In this document: one piece after another, positions 1-51,548 of the stretch
How the letters are laid out: each line of letters begins with the position of its first letter
How positions within the stretch are numbered: the first letter of the stretch is position 1
Sequence record: NC_079180.1
Strand: one strand, 5' to 3'
DNA from: Escherichia phage SKA49
Length of the DNA stretch: 51,548 bases
Translations under genes and position numbers: made by a program
Notes under the pieces: model-generated
What the model was told of the DNA's origin: nothing
Database searches by the model: none
Seen by the model: the letters and a program-made list of their open reading frames with translations, nothing else

Positions 1-170
1 GCTCACTTCGCCCGCTTTATATTATAATTTTATTTTGGGCCAGCGGGGAGGGGAAGTTGTGACATTATTATTTTAAAATTTTTTATCTCCGAGGAGGGGA
101 AGCCCAACGTCCTATCGGACTTAAAATACGGTCCCTACCCCAACTTTTTCCTACAGCCTATCGGCTTTCA
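1..170. repeat. left-end non-coding repeat region
   Basis: G-rich motif GGGGAGGGGAAG at about 45-56 and GAGGAGGGGAAG at 91-102; 12-bp palindromes GTCCTATCGGAC (109-120) and AGCCTATCGGCT (155-166); AT-rich runs; no ORF. Confidence 0.35.
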
Positions 171-250
171 AACAACACCAAGTTAGGCGCTTCGCTTATA
201 AGTCAAGGTCAAAGGCAATCAGAGTACGCTGTTGTAATGTGCTAGTCTCA

Positions 251-270
251 CCATTAGTTGGTTGTGATTA
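251..270 (+). promoter_or_regulatory. variant of the phage promoter-like motif (CCATTAGTTGGTTGTGATT) upstream of the RNAP gene
   Basis: Matches the core CATTAGTTGG-TGTGA shared by seven other intergenic copies; lies 60 nt upstream of the RNAP start. Confidence 0.4.
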
Positions 271-330
271 TGAATAGGCTACGCAAGTCTAATCCGTTTC
301 AGTTAAATCATAATCAATTGGAGACTTATC

Positions 331-2445
331 ATGACTAACGAAGAATACCGTGCACTGGCTGCTGATGGCGCTCGCTTGAAAGAAGAAGGCCAAGGTTGGA
401 AAGACGTGCTCGATACGATGGACCGTTGCAACCAGATGGTAGATGAAATCACCTCCGTTACACAAACCGAAACTAAAACCGAAACTAAATTGGAGACTCG
501 CAAAATGACAACTATCTCAACTCAAACTATCAAATCCGTTGTCCCTGCTATCACTGCTCTGGTATATCGTGCCAAAGAGAAACAGAACTACATGCAGCCT
601 CAGACCTGTGCTATTGCTGCTCTTGCAATCTTTAAGATGATGACCTCATTCACTCGTGATGACGTTGTTCCTGCCATTGCGATGGTTGAGCTGGCTTCTG
701 CTTCTATTGCTGATGCCAACCGCTACAACAACGACTTGAAAGCAATGCACTATGTTGACCCAGCTATCAACCTCATTGGTCTGGCTAAGCACTTCGGCTT
801 CATTACCATGAACGAAGACAAGTCATTCCAACAGACTGACACATGGGTTGAACTGGTTACAACCAAAGACACAGCAGTGCCATTCACTGAGCGTGTTACA
901 TCTGAATCTCGTCGCAAGCCTTTCGTTAAAGGTGGCAAAGTTAAGCCATCCAAAACTTTGAAAGCTGCAATCGAATTCCTGCAAGATACTGAGTACCATG
1001 TGGAGACTGAGATGGTTCGCATCATCCAGTCCATGATTGAACAGCGTACTTATGGTGGCTTGCAGATGCCAGAAGCAATCCAGACTGAACTCCATGTTTG
1101 GAACAATGCTGTAGCAATGATGAATCAGGACACACTGTATTCTGACTACTTTGCTGACAACCGTGGTCGCCTGTATCATGTAGCATGTGCTGGTCCTAAC
1201 CCACAATCCTCTGACTTTGCTCGTTGCTTGTATTCTCACAATGTTGAGAACATCGTTAAGAAGTTTAACGAAGATGGTTCTACTACCATTGCATACAACA
1301 TGTTCATGGCAGAGCTGGAAGATATTTCCGGTGGTGAATGGTGCAGTGCTAAACGTCTGACCTATGTTGCTCAGAATCCAGCTGGTTCACTTGCTCGCAT
1401 GATGAACATGCCTAAAGCTGAACGTCCTTCTAAGCCATTCACTTATGTTCGTCTGGCTCTGGATTGGTTCAAGTTTGAGACTACAGGTGAATGCGATTCT
1501 CGTGTAGGCTTTGGCTTAGATGCTAAATGTTCTGGTACTCAATATCTGGCATTCATTGCTGGTAACATGGAAATGGCTCGTGCAACAGGTCTGGTTGATT
1601 CTGAGACTAAAGCATCTGACCCATACCAGTTGAGTCTTCGTGAACTGTTGAAGCTGCTGGACAAGTCTTCAATGAAACCTTCTGTTGAAATCATGGATGA
1701 ATTCTTGAACCCTAAAGCTGGTCGTAAGTTTATCAAAACTCCGTACATGGCTATTCAATATGGTGGTGGTAAAGCTGCATTAACTGGTTCATCTGACTTC
1801 ATTAGCTACATGACAGAAGCGCTCCAGATTCCTATGGAGAAAGCTGAGGCATTTGCTGAACTGTGTGTAGAAGCAATCCATAACGCATTGGGTGCTAAGA
1901 TTAACATGTTCATCGAGAAAGCTGCTGATGCTGCATACAACCGTTGTGTTGAACTCAACAAAGAGTACATCACATATCGTCACACTGATGGTCAGGTTGT
2001 AATGAAGCCTTGCTTCCCATCTCGTGAAATCTGTGAGGCATTCAGCATTCGTGTTGACTCACAAACTCGTGTTATCTTTGGCCAGATTCAGGAGAATAAG
2101 CCTTGGACCATTCGTGAATCCAATCCAACTAAAGAAGAATTCAAGCGTACTTTCGTTGTTAACTACATTCAAGGTATTGACGCATTGGTTGCTCGTACTG
2201 TTGCAGTTAAGGCTAAAGAAGCTGGTCTTCGTGGCTTCACTTCAATCCATGATTGTTTCCGTTGCTGTCTGGCAGATGCTCCACGTATGATGGAAGTTAT
2301 TCGTGCAGCATATGTTGAAATCTTTGTAACCAACAATCAATTCGAGAATCTGTCTAAGCAACTCGGTGGCATTCAGATGTATCATGAGAACATCGTAACC
2401 GAAGAGCTTCTGATGAGCGAACACGCTTACTACTTCTGTCAATAA
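331..2445 (+). CDS. T7-type single-subunit DNA-dependent RNA polymerase (compact, 704 aa)
   Basis: Motif A-like FGLDAKCSGTQYLA, motif B-like GRKFIKTPYMAIQYGGG, motif C TSIHDCF with catalytic Asp; GGAG RBS before ATG. Confidence 0.85.
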   Translation: MTNEEYRALAADGARLKEEGQGWKDVLDTMDRCNQMVDEITSVTQTETKTETKLETRKMTTISTQTIKSVVPAITALVYRAKEKQNYMQPQTCAIAALAIFKMMTSFTRDDVVPAIAMVELASASIADANRYNNDLKAMHYVDPAINLIGLAKHFGFITMNEDKSFQQTDTWVELVTTKDTAVPFTERVTSESRRKPFVKGGKVKPSKTLKAAIEFLQDTEYHVETEMVRIIQSMIEQRTYGGLQMPEAIQTELHVWNNAVAMMNQDTLYSDYFADNRGRLYHVACAGPNPQSSDFARCLYSHNVENIVKKFNEDGSTTIAYNMFMAELEDISGGEWCSAKRLTYVAQNPAGSLARMMNMPKAERPSKPFTYVRLALDWFKFETTGECDSRVGFGLDAKCSGTQYLAFIAGNMEMARATGLVDSETKASDPYQLSLRELLKLLDKSSMKPSVEIMDEFLNPKAGRKFIKTPYMAIQYGGGKAALTGSSDFISYMTEALQIPMEKAEAFAELCVEAIHNALGAKINMFIEKAADAAYNRCVELNKEYITYRHTDGQVVMKPCFPSREICEAFSIRVDSQTRVIFGQIQENKPWTIRESNPTKEEFKRTFVVNYIQGIDALVARTVAVKAKEAGLRGFTSIHDCFRCCLADAPRMMEVIRAAYVEIFVTNNQFENLSKQLGGIQMYHENIVTEELLMSEHAYYFCQ

Positions 2446-2453
2446 GAGAAACA

Positions 2454-2497
2454 GGGCTGTCATCGAAAGGTGATGGCCCTTTCTTTATTCTTTATTA
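2454..2497 (+). terminator. intrinsic terminator after RNAP gene
   Basis: Hairpin GGGCTGTCAT-CGAAAG-GTGATGGCCC (with G-T pairs) followed by TTTCTTTATTCTTTATT. Confidence 0.55.
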
Positions 2498-2525
2498 ATT
2501 AAATCCTTTAATTCCCAATATTCAA

Positions 2526-3300
2526 GCAATATTGCTGCATGTAATATTGTTTCAATATTCGACATTAGTTGGATGTGAAGTAACAGAATACGGAGAAGTA
2601 TTCCGCATGTCATGTTGAATCATTCTAGAAACATTCAGCATGTCAGCTTTGAGTTACAGCGTTGTAATGATGTGGCAATCATTGAACTCCCTGGGAAGGC
2701 CACCTACAGTTCCAGCAACCATGACTTAGAGTAGGAATATCTATCCGAAACTTGGACTTCATTGTAGTTTGGTGTGCTTCATCGTGAGAAAGGTAGCGAC
2801 AACTTTCATAAGCAAATAGCATGACTCATTCCAGACAAACTTGGAACAGCTCATGTAGTACCAGCATGTTCAATTGCGACAATATTGCTCCATCTCCTAT
2901 TATAAAGGCCCACCCACAAGCCGGGAGATAACTTTGGTAATATTGGAACTTTTGGACATGCTTCTTTCTTTCAATCAGAATTCGAAAGAAGAGAAGAGTC
3001 GGAGCAAAGCCTCTCGTTTACACGCAGAAGCCGCCCCGATTTTGAGCAACAAATATTGTGACAATATTGTCGCAGTATGGCATGTAAATATTGCTACAAA
3101 TTGGCATGTTAGAATGTGGCAGAATTGTTAGAGGACTAATCACCTCGAAGATACAATCGTCTGCCAATCTGGCATGTTAATTTTGTAACAGTATTTGTGC
3201 CAATTTCGCATGTAGTATTTAACCCAATATTCTTGCAACCCGCATGAATACTGGCTTTCAGCCAAGCGAAGGCTTTATCATCGCATGTAATATTGTGACA
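2526..3300. repeat. cluster of AT-rich palindromic motifs (CAATATTG, GACAATATTGTC) and GCATGTAATATTG-like repeats
   Basis: CAATATTG or near copies at about 2527, 2545, 2877, 3049, 3058, 3087, 3294, 3302; (G/C)GCATGT(A/T)A-TATT at about 2536, 3080, 3102, 3169, 3205, 3282. Confidence 0.5.
2562..2580 (+). promoter_or_regulatory. phage promoter-like motif ACATTAGTTGGATGTGAAG
   Basis: Conserved about 19-bp motif in an intergenic position, one of eight copies. Confidence 0.55.
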
Positions 3301-3508
3301 ATATTGGGATAAAACCCTTTATTTAAATCATTTAGTTTATTAATTAAATGGTCGGTTTTCTGTACATAGGTATTCAGCTGTTTGTGCCAAATACAAACAA
3401 GTTGGCTGCTTCTACAGAACTCCAGTGCTACAAATGTTCGTGCCAATCTGCTGCAATTTATCTCATTTGGCGGGGTAATATTGTATTAGGTTGGTACGTC
3501 ATTATTTC

Positions 3509-3529
3509 GATTAGTTGCATGTGAATAAG
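3509..3529 (+). promoter_or_regulatory. degenerate promoter-like motif GATTAGTTGCATGTGAATAAG
   Basis: Partial match to the ACATTAGTTGGATGTGAAG consensus, upstream of the early gene cluster. Confidence 0.3.
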
Positions 3530-3717
3530 ACCAAATCTCTGTAAATTCTGTGACAGATTTTAGAGAGATTATGTCTCCAAGCTAATCATTGTAGTTTTTA
3601 GACACTTTGTGTGTCACATATATAGCCTGTGAAAAACGTGTGGTATATTGCTGGATTGCGACGCGCCCACCAGACTAGGAAGTCACTGACGGCGGCACAC
3701 ACAGGAATACTATATAA

Positions 3718-3780
3718 CTCCCTACAACTTTAAGGTGGATTGAGGTAAGACAAGACCTCCACAATCGTTCTGTAGGGAGT
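3718..3780 (+). promoter_or_regulatory. 9-bp inverted repeat (CTCCCTACA ... TGTAGGGAG) with nested GTGGA/TCCAC stem, upstream of first early gene
   Basis: Perfect reverse-complement arms 3718-3726 and 3772-3780 separated by 45 nt; candidate RNA structure or processing site. Confidence 0.35.
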
Positions 3781-3804
3781 TTTCCTTTAACTTTGGAGAA
3801 TAAA

Positions 3805-4053
3805 ATGGATACTGTGATTAAAGCTGCTTGTTTCAAAGACCTGCAAGATGGTCAAATCTTCACTGTTCGTTCTGTGAAGTGGATTAAAGTAAATGAGTCA
3901 GATAAGTACAATGCTGTAAAGTTCTTTGATTCAAGCAAAGCATGTACTTTTAGCGACAATATTGTTGTCAATATTGAAGTCGAATTAATTCCTGATGACG
4001 GAGATGTTGAAGCAACTCTTCGTAACACTGCTGGATATAACGAGGGATTCTAA
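3805..4053 (+). CDS. hypothetical early protein (82 aa)
   Basis: ATG with GGAG RBS 6 nt upstream; track ORF begins at TTG 3793. Confidence 0.6.
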   Translation: MDTVIKAACFKDLQDGQIFTVRSVKWIKVNESDKYNAVKFFDSSKACTFSDNIVVNIEVELIPDDGDVEATLRNTAGYNEGF

Positions 4054-7083: not shown

Positions 7084-7464
7084 ATGGCACAATATTCAGA
7101 TGTAAACACTGGCATTATCGGTCCTAACGGCTTCAAGAAAGACCCAAAACATCCTGACATTCGTGGACGTATTAACGTTGACGGAATCTGGTATTGGGTA
7201 TCCGGTTGGAACAAGCAAGCAAATGGTAATGAGTTTACCTCACTTGCATTAACCATCATGACCCAAGAACAGGTCGATGAAATGATGCGTAAGCGTGAAG
7301 AGAAAGCTAAAGCCAAAGCTCAACCTCAAGCTGCCGCTCAACAGCAACAGCCTCGACAGCAACCTTCCGCACAACAGCAAGCTCCTGCTCAGCAACAAGC
7401 TCCGCAGTCGTCTGCATACAACCCAAATGAACCACAGGACTTTGACAGCGACATTCCGTTCTAG
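7084..7464 (+). CDS. small protein with bacterial-SSB-type C-terminal tail (ends NEPQDFDSDIPF); candidate mini-SSB or SSB-tail mimic
   Basis: Trp/Gly-rich N-terminal domain, Q/A/P-rich linker, C-terminal acidic tip ending DIPF as in bacterial SSB. Confidence 0.5.
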   Translation: MAQYSDVNTGIIGPNGFKKDPKHPDIRGRINVDGIWYWVSGWNKQANGNEFTSLALTIMTQEQVDEMMRKREEKAKAKAQPQAAAQQQQPRQQPSAQQQAPAQQQAPQSSAYNPNEPQDFDSDIPF

Positions 7465-7585
7465 TGGAGATGCCCTATGAAAATTCTATGTTTTATAGGG
7501 CTACATAATTGGGAAATTTCACACGAAAACGATTATGTAACCATTTGGGTGTGCAGTCACTGTTCAACAATGCGTGAGGAATATC

Positions 7586-8062
7586 ATGGCAAATAAATTT
7601 GTCGAAATACCTGCCAACTTGGTTAAAGCTGGCGACGTATTAGTATACAGCAACAGGGAATATTTAATCGTAAAAGTTCTGCGATTTAGTTCTGTGGTTC
7701 AACTCCAATATTCCGGAGGATACTACAATTTTGAGTTTGGGCGCATAGTAAAAGTGTTGGACAGGCCACCAGCTTCGGGAACTCCAACAATCGAGTTCCC
7801 TAACCAAATAAATCCAGTATTCATTCCTGTGGAGAACAACATGGAAACTTTAAATATCCAAAATGCAATCGAAGCACAACGTATTCTTCTGCAAAAGCTG
7901 GAGCAAATGCTTGATTTAACACAGCTTCCTCCAACAGAAGATGGCAAGATGGCAATTGGCAATGCATCAATTCGCGTGGACAAGGCAACAGTTGTTAAAG
8001 CCGCACGCGATGAAATGAAAGCTGCCGCAAGCAAATCCGCAGAGCTTATCAAGAAATTATGA
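7586..8062 (+). CDS. hypothetical protein (158 aa)
   Basis: ATG with GAGGA RBS; in frame with track ORF 7574..8062. Confidence 0.55.
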   Translation: MANKFVEIPANLVKAGDVLVYSNREYLIVKVLRFSSVVQLQYSGGYYNFEFGRIVKVLDRPPASGTPTIEFPNQINPVFIPVENNMETLNIQNAIEAQRILLQKLEQMLDLTQLPPTEDGKMAIGNASIRVDKATVVKAARDEMKAAASKSAELIKKL

Positions 8063-12559: not shown

Positions 12560-12898
12560 ATGGCTAAGATTGTAACCGTAACTCAGTACGAAGCTAACGA
12601 TGGTTCCCTGTTCCTGACCGAAGCAGAGTGTAATGCACATGACTTCAAACTGGAAAACGGTGCTAAAATTGAGAAAGCTGCCGAAGCGTACCTGAACACC
12701 GTTGGCGCTATCGACCGTTCTCGCTCCATGCAGAAGAACACCATCGAGCAGTTCCTGGCATTCTACCTGCCGTGGGTTGAATCTGGTGAGCCGGAAGTTG
12801 AGCGTACTAAGTTCGATACTCCGAAAGAAGCTAAAGTTGCTGACGCAAGTGTTGCAGAAGCTGCCGAAGCTGCTGTTGAAGAAGCTCCGGTATTCTAA
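12560..12898 (+). CDS. small acidic protein with host-optimal codon usage (112 aa)
   Basis: AAGG RBS; codons dominated by CTG/CCG/CGT/GGT; strongly acidic, C-terminus AEAAEAAVEEAPVF. Confidence 0.7.
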   Translation: MAKIVTVTQYEANDGSLFLTEAECNAHDFKLENGAKIEKAAEAYLNTVGAIDRSRSMQKNTIEQFLAFYLPWVESGEPEVERTKFDTPKEAKVADASVAEAAEAAVEEAPVF

Positions 12899-13795
12899 GT
12901 TGCCGATGGCAAACTTGAGAGACTAAGCTAAATCGATCTGGCATGCACTGGAAGTTTCCGGTGCTGCCTTGAACCCATTCCAGAGTGAGTGGGCTTCAAT
13001 TTGTACATAATTCAAACACCAGTGCATGAGCCTTCGACGGAAGGCAATGTTGGGAAATTTGTTGTGTACAAATTGAAGTAGTTTTCTGAGTCTTACGACG
13101 GGCCTAAACTGCCTGGAGTTATTGCGACTGTTTTATTCATTTAAAATAAATGCAAATGATTCTGAAATGCGAGTTGCGGCTTAATTAAATTTAAGTCCTC
13201 TCCGTGGTCTTCCAATCCCACGTAACCAAATTTGGCGCATTGTGGCTTCGAGATGTGATTAATAAATCGGAGCAATAATTAATTTGTATTCTGCGATGCA
13301 AAGCAGGCTTAAGTCCTCCAGTGCGCGTGGGGATGTGACAGAGTACAAACTTAATTATGCAGTTGGATATTTCTAGAGGACGGACGAGCACACTGGAATG
13401 TCTTCAATTGGTTTAGTGTGAGAAGCTATGCCAATTTGAAACGTAACTCCTTGGGGAAGTGCTCCTCTGGATTTCCCTCCACGCAGGAATCTCAAGCCTG
13501 TGGCAGTGACTTCGAAGCTGCACTGCGTAACCTAATTCACCCTAAAGTGAATTGCCCTGAGCATGGAAATAAACTGCTCAAACCGATGGTATCTACAAAG
13601 GTAGATTAAATCAGGTTGCCTGTTGGTACTTGGGTTCAACACCTGCTTGCACTCGCAAAGTAGTGCCTCGTACCTGAGATGAAGTGAGTCGGGACCATCA
13701 ATCCCACGTTATGTCAAAACACAGTAGGCGACTCACGGATTCTACAAGCCTCGCAGTTCGGGAAAACCTGCGTTATCAAAACCCCCCACCTATTT

Positions 13796-13887
13796 GGACG
13801 AGTAGCTCAGAAGGTTTGCATTGTGCTCAGTCAGGTAGAGCAATCTGTTCGACAGATGTGTCGTTGGTTCGAATCCAACCTCGTCCA
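13796..13887 (+). tRNA. tRNA-like element (possible tRNA gene or pseudogene; isotype undetermined)
   Basis: Perfect 7-bp acceptor stem GGACGAG/CTCGTCC, canonical T-arm GTTGG-TTCGAAT-CCAAC, discriminator A; core about 19 nt longer than standard, with duplicated GCTCAG flanking a 20-nt insert. Confidence 0.4.
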
Positions 13888-13917
13888 CCCATTTTCAACA
13901 ATAAACATGGAGTCCTC

Positions 13918-31295: not shown

Positions 31296-31303
31296 GTTGT
31301 GAT

Positions 31304-31324: not shown

Positions 31325-31350
31325 TCACCAAACAAAACGGATTAATTTAC

Positions 31351-32358
31351 ATGCCTAAGATGATTAAACTGGCGGACGGTTCTGAATTCGAACTGAACGA
31401 CGCCATCGCTCGTATTCAGGATTCTGGTACTGTTCCTCTGAATGATGACGACGCAGTATTCTTTCAACGCCAGCTTGAGTTCATTGAAGCTCAAACTTAC
31501 GACACTCTGTATCCAGAACTGGAGGCTCGTGCTGCTTTCGGTGTGGACACTACTGGTGGTGCTGGCGTAAACACTCTGACCTACCGTTCTTACAACCATG
31601 TTGGTAAAGCACAGGTAATTAACGCTCGTGCAACCGACCTGCCGAAGTCCAGCATTTCTGGTAAAGAATACAGCATCCCTGTTAAGTCTGTTGGTACTGC
31701 ATTCGACTACGATATTGACGAAGTGGCTTCTGCTGCTGTTACTGGCCTCCCGCTGGAAACCCGTAAAGCAAATGCTGCCATCCGTGGTTACGAGCAGTAT
31801 GTTAACTCCGCTGCATGGTACGGCGATAAAGCTAACGGCTTTGTTGGCTTCTTCGAAAACCCAGACATCACCAAAGCAACTGTTGCTCAGGGTGCTGGCA
31901 AGTCTACCAAGTGGGCCGAGAAGACTCCGACCGAAGTTATTGCCGACCTGACTGCTGCTGTGTCTGCAATGTATGCTTCTACTCTGAAAATCATGCGCCC
32001 GGACGAAATCTGGATGCCTGTTGAGCATGAGCAGTACATCTTCAACACTGCACGTTCTGAACAGTCTGACAAGACGATTGGTCAGTTCTTCATTGACAAC
32101 AACCAGTTCATCAACTCCCGCGATAAAATCAAGGGTCTGAACGCAATCAAAGGTCACGGCGATGCTGGCTCTGATTGCTTCGTTGTTGTTTGCCGCAATG
32201 CAATGGGCAACCGTACCTTCCGTCTGCGTGAACCTCTGCCGCTGACCTGGCAACCGGTACAGCTTCATGGCCTGGTTTATGAAGTTCCTGGTCGTGGTCG
32301 TTTCGCTGGCTTCCAAGCGATGTATCCGGCAGCAATCTCCATCAACTCCGGCATCTGA
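31351..32358 (+). CDS. major capsid protein (start uncertain; track ORF begins TTG 31318)
   Basis: Strongly host-optimal codons; follows portal-scaffold-decoration genes; followed by stable hairpin. Confidence 0.7.
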   Translation: MPKMIKLADGSEFELNDAIARIQDSGTVPLNDDDAVFFQRQLEFIEAQTYDTLYPELEARAAFGVDTTGGAGVNTLTYRSYNHVGKAQVINARATDLPKSSISGKEYSIPVKSVGTAFDYDIDEVASAAVTGLPLETRKANAAIRGYEQYVNSAAWYGDKANGFVGFFENPDITKATVAQGAGKSTKWAEKTPTEVIADLTAAVSAMYASTLKIMRPDEIWMPVEHEQYIFNTARSEQSDKTIGQFFIDNNQFINSRDKIKGLNAIKGHGDAGSDCFVVVCRNAMGNRTFRLREPLPLTWQPVQLHGLVYEVPGRGRFAGFQAMYPAAISINSGI

Positions 32359-32364
32359 TAAATA

Positions 32365-32384
32365 GGGCGGGACTGTTCTCGCCC
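32365..32384 (+). terminator. stable hairpin GGGCGGGA-CTGT-TCTCGCCC after capsid gene
   Basis: 8-bp stem including one G-T pair; no T-run. Confidence 0.4.
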
Positions 32385-32404
32385 ATAACTTAAGAGAAAT
32401 AGTA

Positions 32405-32845
32405 ATGCAGATTAAGAACAACGAATCACGCAATCTTCAATTCTTCTTCTATAAGAAGGGAAAGTCTGGCAAATCTGAGTTAGACTTTATTCACATTCCT
32501 GGTGGCGCAACTGTAGAAATCGACGATGAAATCTACAAATCTCTTACGGAATCTTTGACGGAAGTTGAAGAACTGCGCGAAGAAGTGGTTCCGCTTGATG
32601 ACGAGAATATCGGTGCTTCTGTTAAGACCGGTAAAGAAGCTCTTGTCATTAAAGAGTATTACAGCACTGGCAAAACTCGCAAAGTCAACTTGGTTAAAGA
32701 AGCAATCAAAGCTGGCTCTCTTACCATTGTTGAACGTGTGAAAGTTGGTATGCCTGACATTGATGCTATTCTGACTAAGAATGGTATTGATATTAAGGGT
32801 ATGCCGGAAGACGTTAAACTGGCACTCTACGATAAGTTGGCGTAA
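32405..32845 (+). CDS. structural (head/neck) protein, hypothetical
   Basis: Track ORF in morphogenesis module. Confidence 0.5.
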   Translation: MQIKNNESRNLQFFFYKKGKSGKSELDFIHIPGGATVEIDDEIYKSLTESLTEVEELREEVVPLDDENIGASVKTGKEALVIKEYYSTGKTRKVNLVKEAIKAGSLTIVERVKVGMPDIDAILTKNGIDIKGMPEDVKLALYDKLA

Positions 32846-33235: not shown

Positions 33236-33594
33236 TTAACCAGCGTCGAGCATTCAACCGCTACACAACCACTCGTATGTATCTTGAGGTATATCAAGAG
33301 GGTTACTACGATGACAAAAATAATTGGGTTGGTGATTCATATGCTCCAAAGAAACCCATCCGATGTACTCCCATACCTTATGGTGACAGGGATTCTGGCG
33401 TAAGCGGCCAATCGCTTAAAGCTACAGAAGTCGGAGAGCGCCAACCTGCATTCATGCAAGTACATTCCCGAACTGAAATGCCGATGAAGTCTATCCTTAC
33501 TATCTACGGCCTTCGTTATAAAGTTATTTCTGTTTCTGACTACAAGGCGGCTGGGTTCTTTGAAGTTATTGCTGCCAAGGAGTTAGAGAAATGA
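33232..33594 (+). CDS. head-tail joining protein (putative)
   Basis: Track ORF, position only. Confidence 0.45.
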   Translation: MINQRRAFNRYTTTRMYLEVYQEGYYDDKNNWVGDSYAPKKPIRCTPIPYGDRDSGVSGQSLKATEVGERQPAFMQVHSRTEMPMKSILTIYGLRYKVISVSDYKAAGFFEVIAAKELEK

Positions 33595-34103
33595 TTTACG
33601 ATGAAGATATTCAGGCGATTAAGGATATTGTGGACGTCTGTGTGGGCGTCCCACGCTTCTCCTATGAGATGCAGGTAAACGCACCTCGACCATCTGATAA
33701 CTATGCCGCAATAAAGTGTGTGTCGTCAGTTAATCCAGGCTTTGATGAAACTCGAATCGAAGTCCGTAATGGCGAGGAGGTATTTGTTACGAGAGGGATT
33801 CGAATTCTAACTTTCTATATTCTCTTCTCACGTCGTGGGAGTGAATATGTTAAGTTCGACAATTCCTTCTTCCGTCCAGATGTTCAGGCCATGCTTAAAA
33901 GTAAAGGCTTTGCAACACTCGACAAAAATCCACTGAATCTTGCCTCGTTAACTCTTGAGACGAATTGGGAATTCCGAGAAGGAATCCAAATCAAATTCAA
34001 TGTTCTGCGTGAAGACGTAATGAATATTGGAACAATGTCTGACGCCAGTGTTGGCGGCAAATTCTATGATGGTGGTGAACCCATCCTAATTAAGGGAATC
34101 TAA
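33591..34103 (+). CDS. tail completion/neck protein (putative)
   Basis: Track ORF, position only. Confidence 0.45.
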   Translation: MIYDEDIQAIKDIVDVCVGVPRFSYEMQVNAPRPSDNYAAIKCVSSVNPGFDETRIEVRNGEEVFVTRGIRILTFYILFSRRGSEYVKFDNSFFRPDVQAMLKSKGFATLDKNPLNLASLTLETNWEFREGIQIKFNVLREDVMNIGTMSDASVGGKFYDGGEPILIKGI

Positions 34104-35552
34104 ATGGCAATTCCAATTTCCGATATCATCCAGGTCAACATTGCGGTATCTCCGAATGCTGTTGCCGTGGAAGGTTTTGGTCCTCTGCTCTTTCTTTCGA
34201 AGGAGTTTAAACCGACTGCTGCCGAAGTAGTTCCTGTTCGTCAATATACGAGCATGGCTGCGGTGTCTGCGGATTTCCCATCCGGTGAAATCTATAATGC
34301 AGCTTTGGCGTGGTATTCTCAGAAACCTACTCCGAAATATTTCCTGGTTGGTGCAATCACTCATGAAGACGTGGTTCCTGCAACTGCTGGCACTATCACT
34401 GCTTCTACTGCTGCAAACCTGGACGACATTAAGGCTGTAACCTCTGGTGTAATTTCCATCAACATCAACGGCGTTGATATGCACACTGGTGCTATCAACT
34501 TCTCTACCGTAACAGACTTTGCTGGTGCTGCTTCTGCAATGACTGCTGCATTCGTGACTGCTGGCATTCCTGCAACCGTCTCCCAGACTACTGGTGTGTT
34601 CAAAATCACTACCAACCTGACTGGCGACACTGCTGTTATCGGTGATGTATACGGCACTGCTGCAAGTGCTTTCAAGCTGGATGCAAACTCAAGTCCAGTA
34701 TTTGCCCAGGGTAAAGACGAACAGTCTATTGGTTCTGACCTGTCTGCAATTCTGAACTCCACTTACAACTTCTTCTTCGTTGCTATTGACCGTAAGTACC
34801 GCGGCGGCGCCTCTGGTGATAACCAGATGACTGTTGCTAAGTGGGCAGAAGCGAACGAGAAAGTGTTCGGCTGGGCTGACAGTGACCCGCAGATTCTGGT
34901 TGTTGGTGCAGAGTCTAGCTTTAAGCGCGCCAAAGAACAGAACCTCCAGCGTACCTTGCTGGTTTATGATGCGTCTGATAATGGCGACGAATATCCAGAA
35001 ATCTCCATCCTTGGTCGTGCATCAACTGTCAACTTCAACGTTGCAAACTCTTCGCTTGTCCTGGCGTTCAAACAGGGTCCGGCTATCAAGACTGCTGACC
35101 TGTCTCCGAACCAGCTTGCTGCCCTCGAACGTGTAAATGGTAACGCATTCATCAACGTTGGTGGGAACACTATGTTCTACAACGGCAAGATGGCTGACGG
35201 CACTTGGTTCGATACCGTTCAGGGTGTGTCTTGGCTGACCTCCAAGATTCGTGCGAACGTGTTCAACCTGTTCTATACCTCCACTACCAAGATTCCTTGG
35301 ACGGATACCGGCGTTGCCCTGGTCAACCAGCAAGTAACTCTGGCACTGGAACTGGCTGTAACCAATGGTCTGATTGCCCCAGGTTACGACAATGAAGGCA
35401 ACTTCTACCCAGATGGCTACAAAGTCTTGTCTACCGACTTGGCTCTGATGCAATCTCAGAAAGGTGCTCGAATCTGGGAAGGTACTTCCTTCATTGCAAT
35501 TGGCTCTGGCGCATTGCAGGGTGCAGTTATCTCCGGCAACTTCGTTCAGTAA
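34104..35552 (+). CDS. tail sheath protein
   Basis: 482 aa, host-optimal codons, directly before tube, chaperone and tape-measure genes. Confidence 0.6.
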   Translation: MAIPISDIIQVNIAVSPNAVAVEGFGPLLFLSKEFKPTAAEVVPVRQYTSMAAVSADFPSGEIYNAALAWYSQKPTPKYFLVGAITHEDVVPATAGTITASTAANLDDIKAVTSGVISININGVDMHTGAINFSTVTDFAGAASAMTAAFVTAGIPATVSQTTGVFKITTNLTGDTAVIGDVYGTAASAFKLDANSSPVFAQGKDEQSIGSDLSAILNSTYNFFFVAIDRKYRGGASGDNQMTVAKWAEANEKVFGWADSDPQILVVGAESSFKRAKEQNLQRTLLVYDASDNGDEYPEISILGRASTVNFNVANSSLVLAFKQGPAIKTADLSPNQLAALERVNGNAFINVGGNTMFYNGKMADGTWFDTVQGVSWLTSKIRANVFNLFYTSTTKIPWTDTGVALVNQQVTLALELAVTNGLIAPGYDNEGNFYPDGYKVLSTDLALMQSQKGARIWEGTSFIAIGSGALQGAVISGNFVQ

Positions 35553-35563
35553 GGGTGCGATAA

Positions 35564-36019
35564 GTGAAACAATATTCTTTCTATAATACCGACCTCATTA
35601 TCGACGGTGCTCGCGTAGATGGTTTTACCTCTGGTAACGCCATCATCACTGCTCGTCGTAATGCACCTCAGCACCTGCCAGTGATTGACGCGTATGGTAA
35701 GTTGGCTGTGGCTACCACGGCTGACTTGTCTGGTACTATTACGTTCCCGCTTCTGCAAACCGCAGACTGGAACGAAATCCTATACAACCGTGCTCAGCTC
35801 ACTCAGGCAACTGGCTTGTCTGGCAATAAATCTTTGTGGACTCCACTACAGATTCAAATTGTTGACAAGATGGGTGATGTGCTGGTCAATGGTGTAAACG
35901 GCGCTATCTTGCAGCAACCTGCAATTCAGCGTGGTGTGTCCTTCACGTCTAACGTGTGGTCTATCTTTGTAGAGCGCCTCCAGATTAAGACTGGTTCTTA
36001 TCCGGAAATTGGCGTTTAA
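35564..36019 (+). CDS. tail tube protein (GTG start)
   Basis: 151 aa between sheath and chaperone genes. Confidence 0.55.
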   Translation: MKQYSFYNTDLIIDGARVDGFTSGNAIITARRNAPQHLPVIDAYGKLAVATTADLSGTITFPLLQTADWNEILYNRAQLTQATGLSGNKSLWTPLQIQIVDKMGDVLVNGVNGAILQQPAIQRGVSFTSNVWSIFVERLQIKTGSYPEIGV

Positions 36020-36030
36020 TTGGAGTAAGT

Positions 36031-36489
36031 ATGGCTTGTGAATTGCTTCAACGTGAATTCACAAACTCCAAAGGCGAAACAGTGTTAGTCGTTGTTCGAC
36101 AATTGTCGGCTTCGGCTGCACTGTCTCTTCACGCGGAGTTGGTAAGCAAGTTAGGCTCACGAGTATTTCCATTCATCGAAGGTAAATATAACTTCGCTGA
36201 TATTATATACTTGATGCAGCAAGTAGAGCATACCGTATTCACAGAATTGTTTAAGCGTGTTATCAGCATGCACTCGTCCATAGACGGACAAGAAATCAAA
36301 CCTGCATTATATGATATGCAGTTCAATGGCGAATTGATGTTGTCTTGCCATGTCTTTGCTTTCGTGCTCGAAGCAAACTTCCTTGATTTTTTCAAGCAAG
36401 GGCTCGAAATCCACGAACAGAGACGATTGGAGGCGGAGGAAGCATCCAAGCTGGCAGAGCAGAAGAATTCGAGTCCGGAGACAGTTTAG
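36031..36489 (+). CDS. tail assembly chaperone (zero-frame product)
   Basis: Position between tube and tape-measure genes; contains slippery site near 3' end. Confidence 0.55.
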   Translation: MACELLQREFTNSKGETVLVVVRQLSASAALSLHAELVSKLGSRVFPFIEGKYNFADIIYLMQQVEHTVFTELFKRVISMHSSIDGQEIKPALYDMQFNGELMLSCHVFAFVLEANFLDFFKQGLEIHEQRRLEAEEASKLAEQKNSSPETV

Positions 36490-36665
36490 TATCCCTGTTC
36501 CCCGACATAAAATATTTTCTGCATCGTCCTATAATCGAAGACAGTTCTCTCTGCAAGTTACGTGAATTGCAAGATGGAACCTATTCGATTATGGACTTAT
36601 TGCTATTCCACGACATTCTCGATTTGCGTAAGAAACTCGAACCAGTAGATGAAGACAATGGCTAA
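36031..36665 (+). CDS. predicted -1 frameshift product of tail assembly chaperone (G-T / E-E'-like)
   Basis: Slippery heptamer T_TTT_TTC at 36387-36393; -1 frame stop TGA 36384-36386 immediately upstream; -1 frame open for 93 codons to TAA 36663-36665, overlapping the tape-measure start. Confidence 0.5.
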
Positions 36666-39600
36666 TCAAAAAGATTTAATGAAGTTGAGCGTTAATGAGT
36701 TAATTGCATTAGGCTCTCAAAGCGGTCTGACTTTCCATGCTGGTATGAAGAAGTCGCACATGGTTCAACAACTTAGTGCGAGCGCTGCTTCGGGATGGCT
36801 GGATACAAATGCAGAATTAATGGGTGGGTCGTTTGAAGATGACAGTTTAATTACTGAATCTTTGGGCGACTCTTCCATGATTTCAGACGCTGCCCACATT
36901 GCACAAGTGCTTTCAAGTGCTGGCTACACAGAAGCATTTCATGCAGCAATGAATGGCCCAACACACCATGTAGAAGCTGTTCACGCATACATGGAAAGGC
37001 TTGGTGTCAACACAGATGATGTGTGGATGCACATGCCAAAGCCAAATCCGAACTTACCGCAAGGTAGCTTCAACATGCTTAATGCCTATATGCGAGATAC
37101 TTTGCAAGGGCATCAAGATATTATGCCAGAAATCCCAGGCCACTATGCTGGGGATATTATGGCTGAATACTCCACCAACCGTGGAAACATTGCTGACTCA
37201 TATAACTACATGGCTCACATGTATGTTGACCGTGAGCAATACAGCAATCATGAACAATACGCAAGAGACATTAGTCGAGTTGCCAAACGTCTGGAACAAG
37301 AGTTACCCGCAGCCTTTAAGGAAGTTGGGTATACCTCGGCCTCTAATGTAGGAAATAAATCGGCCCCACATATTTCTTACATGGATGCACTTCCTCAGAT
37401 TGGTTCTCCTTCAATTGTTTCTGGCATTGCACATCCTCGTGCACCTCTTAACGCATCTGGACTTCCTCTTGGTTCTTATGGTTCTGGCATAAATCCAGAA
37501 TACTCCCTCACTGCATCATTAACTGGTGGCACTGGTTGGAGTGAACCAAGCAAGGCTTTATATTCCTCTATTAGTGAAGCTGTTAAATCTGCTGCCAAAG
37601 TTTATTCTGGTTCCAAAGGGATGATGAATACTCGTCACGAAGTATCTGACCGTGACATGATTATGGACAGCGCAACTCGCTATACAGATTTGGAAGAAGC
37701 CAGAAGCGGGTACGAAAACCTTCGTTCTGAACTTGCAGATGAACCGGCTTATTCTGCATCGAGTGTTCGAGCTATTCTCGAAAACACTTATGACAAAATG
37801 GATTCCGAACCTGTTCGCATTCCAAAGATGAAGGGAGCATCTCAGCGAGTCGAAAAAGATTCGCAATCAACATCTACAGAATTTACAGCACAACTTGGAG
37901 AGGCCACCAATTGGAACTCTGCAAGAATGCGTCGTGAGGAAATTGCGATTGCAAATATGGATAGTGCTGGATTCCGTGATGTATCAGACTATGGTACAGG
38001 ACGTTCCGAGTCTCCCGTCAGATTCCATGACTTAGAACAGGGCAGCCAAGAGTGGCTAGACTTCCGTAAAAACTATGACATAACTGGTTCAACTGTTGGA
38101 ACTTTCTTAGGAAACAACCCATACACCCGACCTTGGGCGGGAATGATTGACAAGATTGGTCTATCTCGTAGTAAAGAGCACAGCGATTTCACTAAGAAGA
38201 TGTTCGCTGATGGTCACAGGACGGAAGAAGAAGCACGCGCTCGTGTTGGTAAGGAATTTGGATTCGATATCAAACAAACTGGCGCTATAACAAATGACAA
38301 CTATCCCGCCTTCATGTATTCTCCTGATGGTCTTATTGGCGATGATGCCATTTGGGAGCACAAGAATCCGCAAAGGGCTGGTAAGTTTGCTGACCTTCTT
38401 AAAGGCGACCATCCAGATTACATGGACCAAATTCAATTTGGTATGCACGTTTCTGGCCGTTCTCGTGCTTTGTTCTCACAAACCATCAACGACGAAACAC
38501 GTTCACAGTGGATTGAGAAGGACGAAGGATGGTACGAGAGAAACAGAAATCGCCTTGATTCTGTTCTTGGCCGTCTTGATGCTGGGCGAGAGTTTGTTAG
38601 AAACAATGCTGGACTAGACCGAGAAGAACTGATTGCTGGTGCAAGAAGTGCAATGACTGGTGATGGTATCTGGAAGGATATTCGTCAAAGGTCAACTCGT
38701 GGCTACTCTGCCATTGCTGGAACTCCAGAAGACCCATTTATTGGTTCACGTTCTTCGTACAATCCAAAGGCATCATATTCTGACTACCAGCCAAACTTTG
38801 TAATGCACGAGCAAAACTTTCCAGCAACCACAGGAAACGGTGATACTGGAAACGACTCGATGGCATTGTCTGTTAAGAAAGGTATCCTTGCTGCTCAGGA
38901 AGAAAACAGGCAGAAGGGTATTGGTGCAGATGCAGACTTTAATGGCAAAGCCGATTCAATGGGTTGGGACCGCGAAAGATTTGATGCTGCCAATGGCGGT
39001 GGATATTCTGGCGGTGGTGGTGGTCGTGGCGGCAACTTCACAAGCGGTGGCAACTACTATGATGACTACGGTCGCATGGGTGGTTCACTAGCTGCTGGCA
39101 TTGCTGGAGGTAGTATTGGTTCAGCAACCAACGGAGTTATGCAAGCATTAATGGCAACTCCTGCGGGACGTATGGCTGCTGTAGGCATTGGTGCTATTCA
39201 GATTGGCAATGAAGCTGCTGAATACATGAATGACTTTATCGGCAACTCGCTTGATGCTGGCGTGATAAATCCTAATGAATACTCTTCTATGTCGCAAGGC
39301 TTGGAGATGTTAGGACTCAACTCACAACAAGCGGCACGTCTGAATCAAACCACACATAGTGCCTACAACACCATGCTTAACGGCGACCCCAGCGCCGCTG
39401 TGAACATCGTTCGCGGCAGTAGGGGATTGCTCACCATAGGTGATATTCGTGCGACAGGCGGCGACCCTGTGGCCCTAGCTCGCATCATGCAGGAAAGGGG
39501 CAAGGAGCGTGGCTGGAGTCAGGCCCGTATCGCAGGTGCTGCCGAAATGGCTGGCCTGAATGGGATGGCGCGAGCCTACGACCGCACGGAATACAGCCAT

Positions 39601-40374
39601 GAGCAAGCTGGTTCGGTGGTAGAAGCGGGTAGAAACTCTGACTTTGCCGAAGGTATGGCCCAGTCGGAAATGTTGCAGGGAAGCCGCGCACGGATGCTGC
39701 CGAGCTACAACGTGCCACAAAGTGTCTTATCTAACGGTGCTTCCGTATTCGAGGCTGGCAGTGATTCACTTGATAGTGTACGCACTGGATTCAATAATAC
39801 GCGAGAATTTGCTGGAAGTGTTTACGACTTTATCGCCCAGGAAGAATCTGGCGGTCGTGAATATAACAAAGATGGTTCTCGTGTAACAAGTCGTACTGGT
39901 GCTCGTGGGATAATGCAGATTCTTCCTTCAACAGCTCGTGACCCAGGATTTGGAATCAGGCCGTCTGATGGAACTCCGGAAGATGATGCACGAGTTGGTC
40001 GTGAATATTATGACGCAATGTACAAGCGTTATGGCGACCACGAAAAGGCAATGGCTGCTTACACCGATGGTCCTGGAACTGTTGACAAAGCTGTTGATAA
40101 GAATGGGCTGGATTGGCTAACTGCTGTTCCTGTACAAGCACAGAATCGCGTCAAAGCATTCCGTGAATGGGCCAAGTCTTCTCAGACTTTGGAAGAAGGT
40201 GCTACAGGGTTTACTCGCAATGGAATGTCGTACGGTCAAACCCAAACTGTTGTTAATGTTAAGATTGATGCTAAGGTCAACAACCAGACTGCTTCTGCTA
40301 CAGTGGCAATTCCTGGTGGTCAGACTGTGACTCAACAAATGAACATGCACAATGGTGCGCAACAAAGAAGATAA
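36649..40374 (+). CDS. tape-measure-like large virion protein with C-terminal lytic transglycosylase domain
   Basis: Transglycosylase motifs QEESGG, GARGIMQILPSTA, AYTDGPGTV; Gly-rich segment; N-terminal Rho_N-like LSVNELIALGSQSGL; mid-region YqaJ-like motifs ITGSTVG...NPY, EHKNP, DQIQFGMHVSG. Confidence 0.6.
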   Translation: MKTMANQKDLMKLSVNELIALGSQSGLTFHAGMKKSHMVQQLSASAASGWLDTNAELMGGSFEDDSLITESLGDSSMISDAAHIAQVLSSAGYTEAFHAAMNGPTHHVEAVHAYMERLGVNTDDVWMHMPKPNPNLPQGSFNMLNAYMRDTLQGHQDIMPEIPGHYAGDIMAEYSTNRGNIADSYNYMAHMYVDREQYSNHEQYARDISRVAKRLEQELPAAFKEVGYTSASNVGNKSAPHISYMDALPQIGSPSIVSGIAHPRAPLNASGLPLGSYGSGINPEYSLTASLTGGTGWSEPSKALYSSISEAVKSAAKVYSGSKGMMNTRHEVSDRDMIMDSATRYTDLEEARSGYENLRSELADEPAYSASSVRAILENTYDKMDSEPVRIPKMKGASQRVEKDSQSTSTEFTAQLGEATNWNSARMRREEIAIANMDSAGFRDVSDYGTGRSESPVRFHDLEQGSQEWLDFRKNYDITGSTVGTFLGNNPYTRPWAGMIDKIGLSRSKEHSDFTKKMFADGHRTEEEARARVGKEFGFDIKQTGAITNDNYPAFMYSPDGLIGDDAIWEHKNPQRAGKFADLLKGDHPDYMDQIQFGMHVSGRSRALFSQTINDETRSQWIEKDEGWYERNRNRLDSVLGRLDAGREFVRNNAGLDREELIAGARSAMTGDGIWKDIRQRSTRGYSAIAGTPEDPFIGSRSSYNPKASYSDYQPNFVMHEQNFPATTGNGDTGNDSMALSVKKGILAAQEENRQKGIGADADFNGKADSMGWDRERFDAANGGGYSGGGGGRGGNFTSGGNYYDDYGRMGGSLAAGIAGGSIGSATNGVMQALMATPAGRMAAVGIGAIQIGNEAAEYMNDFIGNSLDAGVINPNEYSSMSQGLEMLGLNSQQAARLNQTTHSAYNTMLNGDPSAAVNIVRGSRGLLTIGDIRATGGDPVALARIMQERGKERGWSQARIAGAAEMAGLNGMARAYDRTEYSHEQAGSVVEAGRNSDFAEGMAQSEMLQGSRARMLPSYNVPQSVLSNGASVFEAGSDSLDSVRTGFNNTREFAGSVYDFIAQEESGGREYNKDGSRVTSRTGARGIMQILPSTARDPGFGIRPSDGTPEDDARVGREYYDAMYKRYGDHEKAMAAYTDGPGTVDKAVDKNGLDWLTAVPVQAQNRVKAFREWAKSSQTLEEGATGFTRNGMSYGQTQTVVNVKIDAKVNNQTASATVAIPGGQTVTQQMNMHNGAQQRR

Positions 40375-49711: not shown

Positions 49712-49728
49712 AATGATAAGGAACTCGA

Positions 49729-50283
49729 ATGCTATCATTCAAAGTCCTTGCACTTCTGGCAGCTTTAGTTCACATCAACGCCCCAGCTTCGGTTGGGGCA
49801 GTGAATTCTGCTATTACAGATTTTGCAAGTCATTCTTATTTAAATGGAAGTCTGAAACTATCTTCTTCACAACGCAAAGAGCTAGAATGCTACACTAAAG
49901 TTATCTGGTATGAAGCTCGCGGAGAAGACAAACATGGAAAGATTCTGGTAGCTAATGTCGTCCGTAATAGAACTGAGTTCGGGAAGCCATTCGCTAACAC
50001 CGTTTGTGATGTTGTCTATCAACGCAATCAATTTGCATGGACACGAGAAGCAAAGAAGAAGAATGCTCAATGGAAGCATGTAGCAAAGATTAATTATGCC
50101 ACAGAACAACAACAAGTTCTGGACACCATTAGTGTTGCAATCTCTTTTGTACTATTTAATCAACCCTCTGTCACCAAAGCAACCCACTTTTGTACAGCAT
50201 CTGAGAAGTGCAACTTCAAGAATGTTAAAGGTCTGGGACGTTATGGTGGCCATAAATTCTATGAGTATCTAGGAAATCTGTAA
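49729..50283 (+). CDS. SleB/CwlJ-like cell wall hydrolase with N-terminal signal sequence (endolysin candidate)
   Basis: [25 protein letters not shown]...[15 protein letters not shown]; N-terminus [24 protein letters not shown]; AAGGA RBS. Confidence 0.7.
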
Positions 50284-51383
50284 TGGCTTACACTACCTTT
50301 TCACAAACCAAGAATAACCAACTACTAGAGCCAATGTTCTTTGGTCAGAACGTTAACGTTGCTCGATATGACCAACAGAAGTACAGCATCTTCGAGAAGT
50401 TAATCGAGAAGCAGTTGTCTTTCTTTTGGCGACCTGAGGAGGTTGATGTTAGCCAGGACCGAATTGACTATGCTGGTCTTCCTGAGTGTGAGAAACACAT
50501 TTTCACCAGCAATTTACGATACCAAATCTTGCTTGATTCCATTCAGGGACGTGGGCCAACTACAGTTTTGCTACCAATTGTGAGCATTCCTGAGCTTGAA
50601 ACTTGGATTGAAACTTGGTCATTCTCAGAGACAATTCACTCTCGTTCTTACACGCATATTATTCGCAATATTGTCACCGACCCAAGCGTCATCTTTGATG
50701 AAATTGTGGAGAATGAGCATATTAAAATGCGTGCAATTGGCATCTCCCAATATTATGACGAGCTTCAACACCTGACTTCCATGTGGCATCTGCATGAAGA
50801 TAAAGTTTCTCTTCGTGAGCTTAAGAAGAAGCTGTATTTATGCCTAATGTCCATCAATGCACTGGAAGCAATTCGCTTTTATGTCAGTTTTGCTTGCTCA
50901 TTTGCCTTCGCTGAACGCAAGTTAATGGAAGGAAATGCCAAGATTATTCGCTTAATTGCTCGTGATGAAGCGCTCCATTTGACCGGAACTCAACACATGC
51001 TGAACCTTCTTGCAAGCGGTGCTGATGACCCAGAAATGGCCGAAATTGCTAAAGAATGCCGCCAAGAATGCCAAGAAATGTTCGAAAATGTGGCCCAACA
51101 AGAGAAAGATTGGGCTGATTATTTGTTCAAAGATGGCTCAATGATTGGCTTAAACAGGCAAATTCTGTGCGGATATGTGGAATATATTACAAATATTCGT
51201 ATGCAAGCAGTTGGATTGGATGCTCCATTCAAAGGTGCTACTAACCCGATTCCTTGGATTAACGCATGGTTGAATTCGGATGCTGTACAAGTTGCTCCAC
51301 AAGAAACGGAGATTAGTTCGTACCTTGTTGGGCAGATTGACTCCGAAGTTGACACCAATGCTCTAGGCGGATTTGAACTATGA
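50283..51383 (+). CDS. nrdB: class Ia ribonucleotide reductase beta subunit
   Basis: Near-colinear with enterobacterial NrdB as I recall it: [54 protein letters not shown]-terminal [13 protein letters not shown]; one short internal deletion. Confidence 0.85.
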
Positions 51384-51470
51384 TTGGGTACGGTGAAGGC
51401 TGACGTTTGTCAGTTAATATGTGAGAAGAGATTCGATGCGTTAGCGTCGTTTCTCTTTGAACTAGAATAA

Positions 51471-51548
51471 AATAAGTAAGTTAAATATTACTTATTCCCA
51501 ATATTGCTACAATATTAAGAGTAATATTAGGAATGCGTAAAGTTCAAA
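51471..51548. repeat. right-end non-coding region with 9-bp AT-rich hairpin and three AATATT(G/A) motifs
   Basis: AATAAGTAA-GTTAAATA-TTACTTATT hairpin; CCAATATTGCTACAATATTAAGAGTAATATTAGG echoes the 2.5-3.3 kb cluster. Confidence 0.35.

Follow-up and report, generated by a model that had tools for sequence, protein, structure and literature searches.

Translational selection on the genes of phage T7 was reportedly described by Sharp et al. in 1985. Across 74 phages, head and tail proteins favor host-preferred codons when amino acids and GC content at third codon positions (GC3) are controlled for, and heads do so more strongly (Lucks et al. 2008, PMC2266997). In the family Chaseviridae, hypothetical genes are in the majority and the phage promoters still await identification (PMC12842549). 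Phage phiEcoM-GJ1 is on record as matching its host poorly genome-wide, with a correlation of relative synonymous codon usage (rRSCU) of 0.34 (Chithambaram et al., PMC4032129), and our literature search found no paper on the within-genome codon pattern of Chaseviridae. Here, we describe this pattern for Escherichia phage SKA49 (NC_079180.1), whose 51,548-nucleotide sequence, taken at its full length, we call the window. Nine of its genes, scattered over five loci, depart to varying degrees from the codon usage of the bulk toward that of E. coli genes with high expression.

The window is essentially a near-complete Carltongylesvirus genome, running from an RNA polymerase (RNAP) gene (505-2445) through the gene for the beta subunit of ribonucleotide reductase (50283-51383). 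In a megablast search with positions 28000-36500, 79 phage records matched, the closest being Escherichia phage ST32 (Chaseviridae, Carltongylesvirus) with 94.8% identity across the full query, and complete E. coli genomes gave no match. The plus strand holds every gene of the window, among them all of the long open reading frames (ORFs) with ST32 protein matches.

Nine genes with host-like codon usage

Our gene set consists of 73 genes, each of at least 45 codons, with starts taken from the ST32 annotation via blastp and with ORFs added in the gaps. The host high-expression reference comprises 31 E. coli K-12 genes (ribosomal proteins [RPs], tufA, fusA and rpoA; 5,284 codons), and the average-gene background comprises 37 genes in the first 50 kb of the E. 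coli chromosome (13,740 codons). The reference favors CGT, GGT, GCT, GTT, TCT and ACT, together with CTG, CCG, CAG and the C-ending two-fold codons. Against it, the codon adaptation index (CAI) of the 73 genes ranges from 0.23 to 0.80, with the bulk at about 0.30-0.47. When each gene is simulated from its own amino-acid sequence and one genome-wide codon table, the resulting z-scores have a variance of 8.0, and their squares sum to 582 against a 99.9% null quantile of 118. Synonymous codon use is too heterogeneous for a single codon class; amino-acid composition and gene length are excluded as the cause, since the simulation conditions on both.

The excess lies in nine genes. Their z-scores are 9.2 (major capsid protein, MCP), 8.7 (sheath), 8.5 (RNAP), 6.3, 6.0 (gp32), 5.8, 4.3 (gp54), 3.3 (tube) and 3.0 (gp58), all with p <= 0.0004, while the tenth-ranked gene reaches only 1.7. 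A multinomial mixture fitted to the codon counts, without any host information, prefers two classes by the Bayesian information criterion (BIC; K=1, 31378; K=2, 31044; K=3, 31128), and in the SKA49 window this preference is unchanged under the stricter codon-count penalty. The minor class consists of the same nine genes, which make up 17.6% of all codons and lie at five separate loci amid bulk genes:

505-2445, plus strand: single-subunit RNAP, 99% identical to ST32 gp1, phrog_414; CAI 0.617, effective number of codons (Nc) 38.8, class posterior 1.0
12560-12898, plus strand: gp32-like acidic protein of 112 aa, the most host-adapted gene, phrog_17419; CAI 0.797
20467-21333, plus strand: gp42-like protein of 288 aa with an oligonucleotide/oligosaccharide-binding (OB) fold, probably binding single-stranded DNA; CAI 0.620
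29455-30519, plus strand: gp54, head maturation protease/scaffold-like, an intermediate member, phrog_530 and Pfam DUF2213; CAI 0.545
30529-31002, plus strand: gp55, capsid cement/decoration protein, Pfam PF22758 Phage_cement (E = 4e-17); CAI 0.669, GC3 at synonymous sites (GC3s) 0.383
31351-32358, plus strand: MCP, phrog_264; CAI 0.736
32405-32845, plus strand: gp58-like protein of 146 aa, an intermediate member adjoining the capsid gene, phrog_14310; CAI 0.556
34104-35552, plus strand: tail sheath, phrog_205; CAI 0.635
35564-36019, plus strand: tail tube, a weaker member, assigned by synteny and the annotations of phages Nougat and 4HA13; CAI 0.515

The original prediction, made from the letters of the sequence, had named six of these genes. 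Its coordinates 12560-12898 and 20467-21333 are exact ORFs, its "decoration" gene is 30529-31002, and all six genes are indeed raised (CAI 0.515-0.797; z 3.3-9.2), but the list was incomplete, as RNAP, gp54 and gp58 were missed. In the gp32 gene, every Leu codon is CTG, and TTA, CTA and TCA are absent; the cement gene likewise has none of these three codons.

Most genes were said to use AT-rich codons, and the bulk GC3s of 0.372 agrees with this. The subset was said to use GC-ending codons, and here the description does not fit: GC3s in the nine-gene class is 0.423, the class is still mostly A/T-ending, and the change is mainly a loss of A-ending codons to C- and T-ending ones, plus CTG, CCG and CAG. 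From bulk to high class, A at third positions falls from 0.259 to 0.186, with gains of 0.04 for C, 0.02 for T and 0.01 for G. CTG rises from 0.16 to 0.50 and CGT from 0.44 to 0.74; ACA falls from 0.33 to 0.08, GGA from 0.19 to 0.02, and ATA, AGA and AGG drop to about zero, so that AGA, AGG and CGG together account for none of the 101 Arg codons of the high class versus 136 of 628 in the bulk. G-ending codons go up for Leu, Pro and Gln and down for Gly, Arg, Ser, Thr and Val. That the codons are host-optimal is, on the other hand, borne out, the log ratios of high-class to bulk usage following those of E. coli RP to average genes (Pearson 0.78, Spearman 0.81); usage itself correlates with E. 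coli RP usage at 0.88 in the high class and 0.58 in the bulk.

GC3s separates the nine genes with an area under the curve (AUC) of 0.80, compared with 1.0 for CAI, and the two measures are correlated at r = 0.49. GC3 or base composition as the cause is rejected on these AUC values, on the codon-specific changes among G-ending codons and on the low GC3 of the class in Proteus phage Myduc. The three genes that had been overlooked have low or middling GC3s (RNAP 0.375, gp54 0.371 and gp58 0.399). GC3 is a poor proxy for host adaptation, and its use hid these three members.

Speaking of two classes is nonetheless a simplification, because the scalar CAI shows no significant bimodality. In Silverman's test, p is 0.89 with all genes included, 0.64 with a minimum length of 100 codons and 0.39 with one of 140 codons; the distribution is right-skewed, and the advantage of a two-component Gaussian mixture model is marginal and confined to genes of at least 100 codons. 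According to the original prediction, a codon index computed per gene against highly expressed host genes should be bimodal, and for the scalar CAI the bimodality is absent, which formally refutes it for this index. A host-referenced mixing coefficient alpha, which weighs E. coli RP usage against the usage of the bulk computed without the gene in question, descends gradually: 1.0 for gp32 and MCP, 0.81 for cement, 0.80 for sheath, 0.70 for gp42, 0.50 for RNAP, 0.46 for tube, 0.38 for gp58 and 0.36 for gp54, with the bulk at or below 0.35. An alpha derived from the phage's own classes appears bimodal, but this measure is circular, the classes having been learned from the same genes. Even so, its intervals exclude both 0 and 1 for gp54 (0.56-0.97, estimate 0.78), portal (0.06-0.44) and primase-helicase (0.06-0.42). 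We conclude that codon usage here consists of a bulk with a tail of graded strength, and that "two classes" can serve as shorthand for it: the two-class mixture of codon counts wins, but CAI is not bimodal and alpha is graded.

Proposed translational selection and its alternatives

We are fairly confident that the pattern is best explained by translational selection acting on those genes whose proteins are produced in greatest quantity, and we infer that the nine genes are the most highly expressed ones. The baseline of the phage genome is A/T-ending codon usage, presumably of mutational and compositional origin, from which the nine genes would have been pushed, to varying degrees, toward the codons of abundant E. 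coli tRNAs (CTG, CGT, GGT/GGC, GCT, ACT/ACC, TCT/TCC, GTT, CCG, CAG and C-ending two-fold codons). A shift whose strength follows how much of each protein is needed would give a bulk followed by a graded tail. The avoidance of TTA, CTA and TCA also leaves the codon-aligned antisense frame poor in stops and thereby creates long meaningless ORFs, with 31342..32433 on the minus strand as the extreme case. The signs of high expression are indirect: MCP, cement, sheath and tube are virion parts present in multiple hundreds of copies. In virions of the chasevirus 4HA13, liquid chromatography-mass spectrometry (LC-MS) found MCP, tape measure, sheath and AC4HA13_0057 to be highest (PMC9699118), and AC4HA13_0057 is the cement orthologue by synteny. 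The codon bias of the nine genes is a well-known signature of selection for efficient translation, an ordinary and long-established principle; its practical value is that codon adaptation offers a cheap ranking of likely abundant proteins, which singles out gp32, gp42 and gp58.

The same proteins are biased in other genera. In Erwinia phage Nougat (Loessnervirus), all nine orthologues, 42-89% identical, fall in the minor mixture class and among the 15 highest CAI values of 67 genes. The leading E. coli-referenced CAI values there are 0.75 (gp32 orthologue), 0.70 (MCP) and 0.65 (cement), followed by those of the orthologues of the single-stranded DNA-binding protein (SSB) gp19, gp58, sheath, dUTPase, gp42, RNAP, protease and tube. 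Proteus phage Myduc has a genome GC of 39%; its minor class again takes in all nine orthologues, joined by ten further genes, the orthologues of the gp19 SSB and dUTPase among them, and the gp32 orthologue has the top CAI. The nine Myduc orthologues have a GC3 of just 0.21-0.31, with CGT, GGT and ATC up, AGA, AGG and ATA down and TTA slightly up. With protein identities of 38-89% across Nougat and Myduc, this sharing of the bias by three genera argues for a continuing selection tied to protein role, in preference to shared codon ancestry or a GC effect.

Several observations weigh against translational selection, or against a clean class of its targets, and should be set beside it. In addition to the lack of bimodality in CAI, the two-class model wins in Nougat and Myduc under the gene-count BIC only, not under the codon-count BIC. 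The tape measure protein is prominent in the mass spectrometry of 4HA13 virions, yet its gene is of bulk class here (CAI 0.377). Shine-Dalgarno duplex energies do not differ between high class and bulk (p = 0.26), and the capsid gene is without an obvious Shine-Dalgarno sequence. RNAP is an enzyme, so that a high-copy argument does not obviously apply to it, although T7 RNAP is alike, and gp32 has no assigned function.

Phage genomes are mosaic, and the nine genes could be atypical through horizontal origin or through regional mutational or compositional heterogeneity, with translation irrelevant. GC content is about 0.39-0.42 in the early region of the window and does climb to about 0.44-0.50 where the head and tail genes lie, and the correlation of GC3s with CAI, weak as it is, points the same way. 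The codon data, however, fit this account poorly: the shift is codon-specific and directed toward E. coli RP usage rather than base composition, and the Myduc orthologues are biased despite their low GC3. The GC-richest kilobase of the window (39001-40000, GC 0.525) lies within the bulk-class tape measure gene, whose GC at first and second codon positions (GC12) is 0.516, and its GC peak is therefore a matter of amino-acid composition, not of codon choice. The nine genes, moreover, sit at five loci among bulk genes and are syntenic core genes family-wide, in 79 chasevirus records. A horizontally acquired island was rejected on this scatter and conservation, and on a GC12 similar to that of neighboring genes. 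Taking these points together, we regard an origin of the pattern in mosaicism or composition as very unlikely.

A further explanation would be two discrete codon programs tied to temporal or regulatory classes, for example through a changed late tRNA pool or a phage tRNA. The mixture model favors exactly two classes, and the alpha derived from the phage classes is bimodal, with zero genes between 0.5 and 0.7; the tRNA-like gene of the window (13795..13891), if it is a tRNA-Arg(UCG), would serve CGA, which accounts for 104 of the 628 bulk Arg codons versus 3 of 101 in the high class. But that alpha is the circular one, the host-referenced alpha falls gradually, from 1.0 to 0.36, CAI is not bimodal, and the alpha intervals of gp54, portal and primase-helicase exclude both extremes. 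The class is also not a temporal one, since it mixes the early RNAP, gp32 and gp42 from the replication region, and late structural genes; temporal class as an explanation was rejected on this ground. Such discrete programs seem to us improbable, and we retain translational selection of graded strength as the preferred account.

Antisense frames, gp32 and gp42, and neighboring loci

Long reverse-strand ORFs lie opposite members of the class, two of which concern us here:

31342-32433, minus strand: spurious antisense ORF of 363 aa, codon-aligned across the entire capsid gene, with a possible TTG start
30514-31014, minus strand: spurious antisense ORF of 166 aa, codon-aligned with the cement gene, without a Pfam or PHROG match

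The longest antisense open frame in the window (364 codons, 31345-32436) spans all of MCP. It is codon-aligned, and it is long because TTA, CTA and TCA, the reverse complements of the stop codons, are absent from MCP: none of its 334 codons is one of the three, which at the bulk rate would occur by chance with a probability of about 1e-5. The three codons together amount to 1.2% of high-class codons versus 3.4% of bulk codons (Fisher p = 5e-11), and across genes their density falls as CAI rises (rho = -0.72). The earlier claim that such ORFs arise opposite the highly adapted genes holds for 6 of the 9 longest antisense open frames, but bulk genes, namely the gp75 fiber, gp46 and primase-helicase, have long ones opposite them too.

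The length of the ORF at 31342..32433, which far exceeds that of the other antisense ORFs, and its possible TTG start are what a real overlapping antisense gene would have in its favor. Its frame, however, is codon-aligned with the capsid gene and fully explained by the three avoided codons, and it is interrupted in relatives, by one in-phase stop in ST32 (at codon 113) and by three in Nougat. Among the 40 codon differences between the MCP genes of SKA49 and ST32, 33 are synonymous in the sense frame and 3 in the antisense frame; put as amino-acid changes, 37 of the 40 alter the antisense product and 7 the capsid protein. None of the five longest antisense ORFs has a Pfam or PHROG match, and all annotated genes of the family sit on the opposite strand. 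An overlapping gene was accordingly rejected, as the ORF is not conserved, changes mostly non-synonymously in its own frame and has no homologues in these databases; we give a real gene at this place next to no chance. The original prediction had called this ORF spurious, correctly on all of these counts. In annotation, the long minus-strand frames that face RNAP, cement, capsid and sheath ought not to be recorded as genes.

The codon signal points to the uncharacterized, non-structural gp32 and gp42 as probably very abundant proteins in chasevirus infection. gp32 is limited to Chaseviridae, is present in 79 chasevirus records and is the most host-adapted gene in three genera. The protein is built of a conserved domain (about 90 aa), an acidic, variable linker and, at the C-terminus, an invariant P-[VLM]-F; among 31 homologues, the linker varies freely and the terminal Phe is invariant. 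Searches of gp32 gave no Pfam, PDB sequence or Foldseek match, and its family phrog_17419 is of unknown function. gp42 has no sequence-level PDB match, even by profile, and fold comparison alone places it among the OB-fold SSBs; it is probably a single-stranded DNA-binding protein. The C-terminal tips of the gp19 SSB (7084-7464; ...DFDSDIPF), gp32 (...EEAPVF) and gp42 (...GTGMPF) are of one kind, a Pro-x-Phe or x-Pro-Phe tip following an acidic or low-complexity tail, and that of gp19, annotated as an SSB, presumably resembles the E. coli SSB tip. It is tempting, though on balance doubtful, to regard gp32 as a stoichiometric host-takeover or replication-hub protein with an SSB-like C-terminal tip. 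If this were true, gp32 would act either as a competitor for the partners that bind SSB or by docking to the replisome of the phage.

The tRNA-like gene allows more than one reading:

13795-13891, plus strand: tRNA-like gene of about 95 nt; ARAGORN tRNA-Leu(CAG), Rfam tRNA 45.2 bits

The Rfam alignment carries a 23-nt insertion in the D-loop, and removal of 20 nt leaves a perfect 77-nt tRNA-Arg(UCG), the 20-nt insertion in this reading duplicating GCTCAG. The ST32 paper reports a 95-bp tRNA-Arg (PMC6266442), and the GenBank note of phiEcoM-GJ1 reads tRNA-Arg, codon CGA, and adds that it may contain an intron. In an alignment of ten chasevirus sequences, the gene barely varies: beyond a few scattered substitutions and a 6-nt deletion in SA91KD, there are two variable parts, the inserted patch and the 5-nt loop of the would-be anticodon (TTCGA, TTAGG, TCGAA, TAAGA). 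This loop variation fits better the type-II variable-arm loop of the ARAGORN reading, though the D stem of that reading is poor. At the syntenic site, Myduc has an ordinary 76-nt tRNA-Arg and Nougat has none. Searching IMG/VR for exact copies of the D-arm junction without the interruption returned only unrelated tRNAs, and a pattern built on the conserved flanks returned five contigs. On these results, the gene is ambiguous between a tRNA-Arg(UCG) with a 20-nt insertion and a type-II tRNA-Leu(CAG), which are incompatible readings, and it may be something other than an ordinary decoding tRNA.

Phage tRNAs supplement codons that are common in the phage and rare in the host, according to Bailly-Bechet 2007 and Kunisawa as they are cited in PMC4032129. 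E. coli has no Watson-Crick cognate tRNA for CGA, which is nearly absent from its highly expressed genes (PMC4032129, Table 1). Like the supplementing tRNAs, the Arg(UCG) reading would decode a codon that is common in the phage, as CGA constitutes 17% of bulk Arg codons; if that reading is right, the gene would therefore serve the unadapted majority, in which CGA is enriched, and this is the usual role of phage tRNAs. Unlike them, the gene has a length of about 95 nt, a 20-nt insertion and a variable would-be anticodon loop, and ARAGORN reads it as Leu(CAG). Just upstream, the homologue of ST32 gp34 (80 aa) is split across two frames, 13436-13609 and 13573-13677, which suggests a frameshift, a pseudogene or a sequencing error.

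Two hairpins adjoin genes of the class:

2453-2480, plus strand: terminator-like hairpin directly 3' of the RNAP gene, with a 12-bp stem and a T-run, identified by consensus match only
21348-21363, plus strand: terminator-like hairpin GGCTCC-TTCG-GGAGCC with a T-run, directly 3' of gp42

At the site syntenic with the latter, a rho-independent terminator is annotated in phage 4HA13, and a weaker terminator-like hairpin lies about 75 nt 3' of gp32. GC-rich hairpins flank the capsid gene on both sides, one reading GGCGCA...TGCGCC (about 31307-31328) and one, which lacks a T-run, GGGCGGG...TCGCCC (about 32366-32385); they could be signals for processing, stability or termination by the phage RNAP. 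The leader of the capsid gene, which has no recognizable Shine-Dalgarno sequence, reads ...aaaacggattaatttacATG (31296-31350). A scan of the window for sigma-70 consensus promoters was at or below shuffle expectation and hence uninformative.

Downstream of the RNAP gene, no ORF in about 1.6 kb (2446-4053) is homologous to a protein annotated in ST32. A direct terminal repeat of 3.2 kb in Myduc comprises the RNAP gene and the region following it, and the repeat of 4HA13 is 3.1 kb; by analogy with these terminal repeats, a packaged genome may carry RNAP twice. At 7574-8062, the homologue of gp20 (298 aa in ST32) has only 162 aa and aligns to three distinct parts of gp20, so that it has the look of a protein of internal repeats from which units have been lost. 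An additional HNH/endonuclease VII-like gene (21382-21810, 142 aa, phrog_2340; CAI 0.36), situated between gp42 and the exonuclease gene and without an ST32 counterpart, probably encodes a homing endonuclease of a mobile kind. An ORF of 81 aa (20205-20450) occupies the place of ST32 gp41 and has no detectable similarity to it, and the syntenic small protein of 4HA13, AC4HA13_0041, is among the twelve most prominent in virion LC-MS.

Comparison with T7 and other phages

T7 offers the nearest parallel. With the same reference, its top CAI values belong to the gp2.5 SSB (0.675), the major capsid protein gp10A (0.643), the small acidic early protein gp0.3 (0.608), the gp9 scaffold (0.562) and the gp1 RNAP (0.545), and these five are among T7's most strongly synthesized proteins. 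They pair with members of the class in SKA49: gp2.5 with gp42, 10A with MCP, 9 with gp54, 1 with RNAP, both phages having a single-subunit RNAP, and 0.3 with gp32, although the likeness of gp32 to gp0.3 (Ocr) is an analogy of size, charge and codon bias only. T7 differs in its higher baseline GC3 (about 0.5) and in that its gene 10 retains one TTA/CTA/TCA codon and hence, unlike MCP here, has no full-length antisense ORF. The sheath and tube genes belong to SKA49 as a myovirus, unlike T7.

The low rRSCU of phiEcoM-GJ1 fits a poorly adapted bulk such as we describe. As in the survey of Lucks et al. 2008, MCP and cement of SKA49 are more adapted than sheath and tube, and the baseplate and fiber genes are not adapted. 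In contrast to the structural set of that survey, the class here includes the non-structural RNAP, gp42 and gp32, and most structural genes (portal, tape measure, baseplate and fibers) lie outside it. "Structural" is therefore a poor proxy for the class, and copy number per virion or per cell fits it better.

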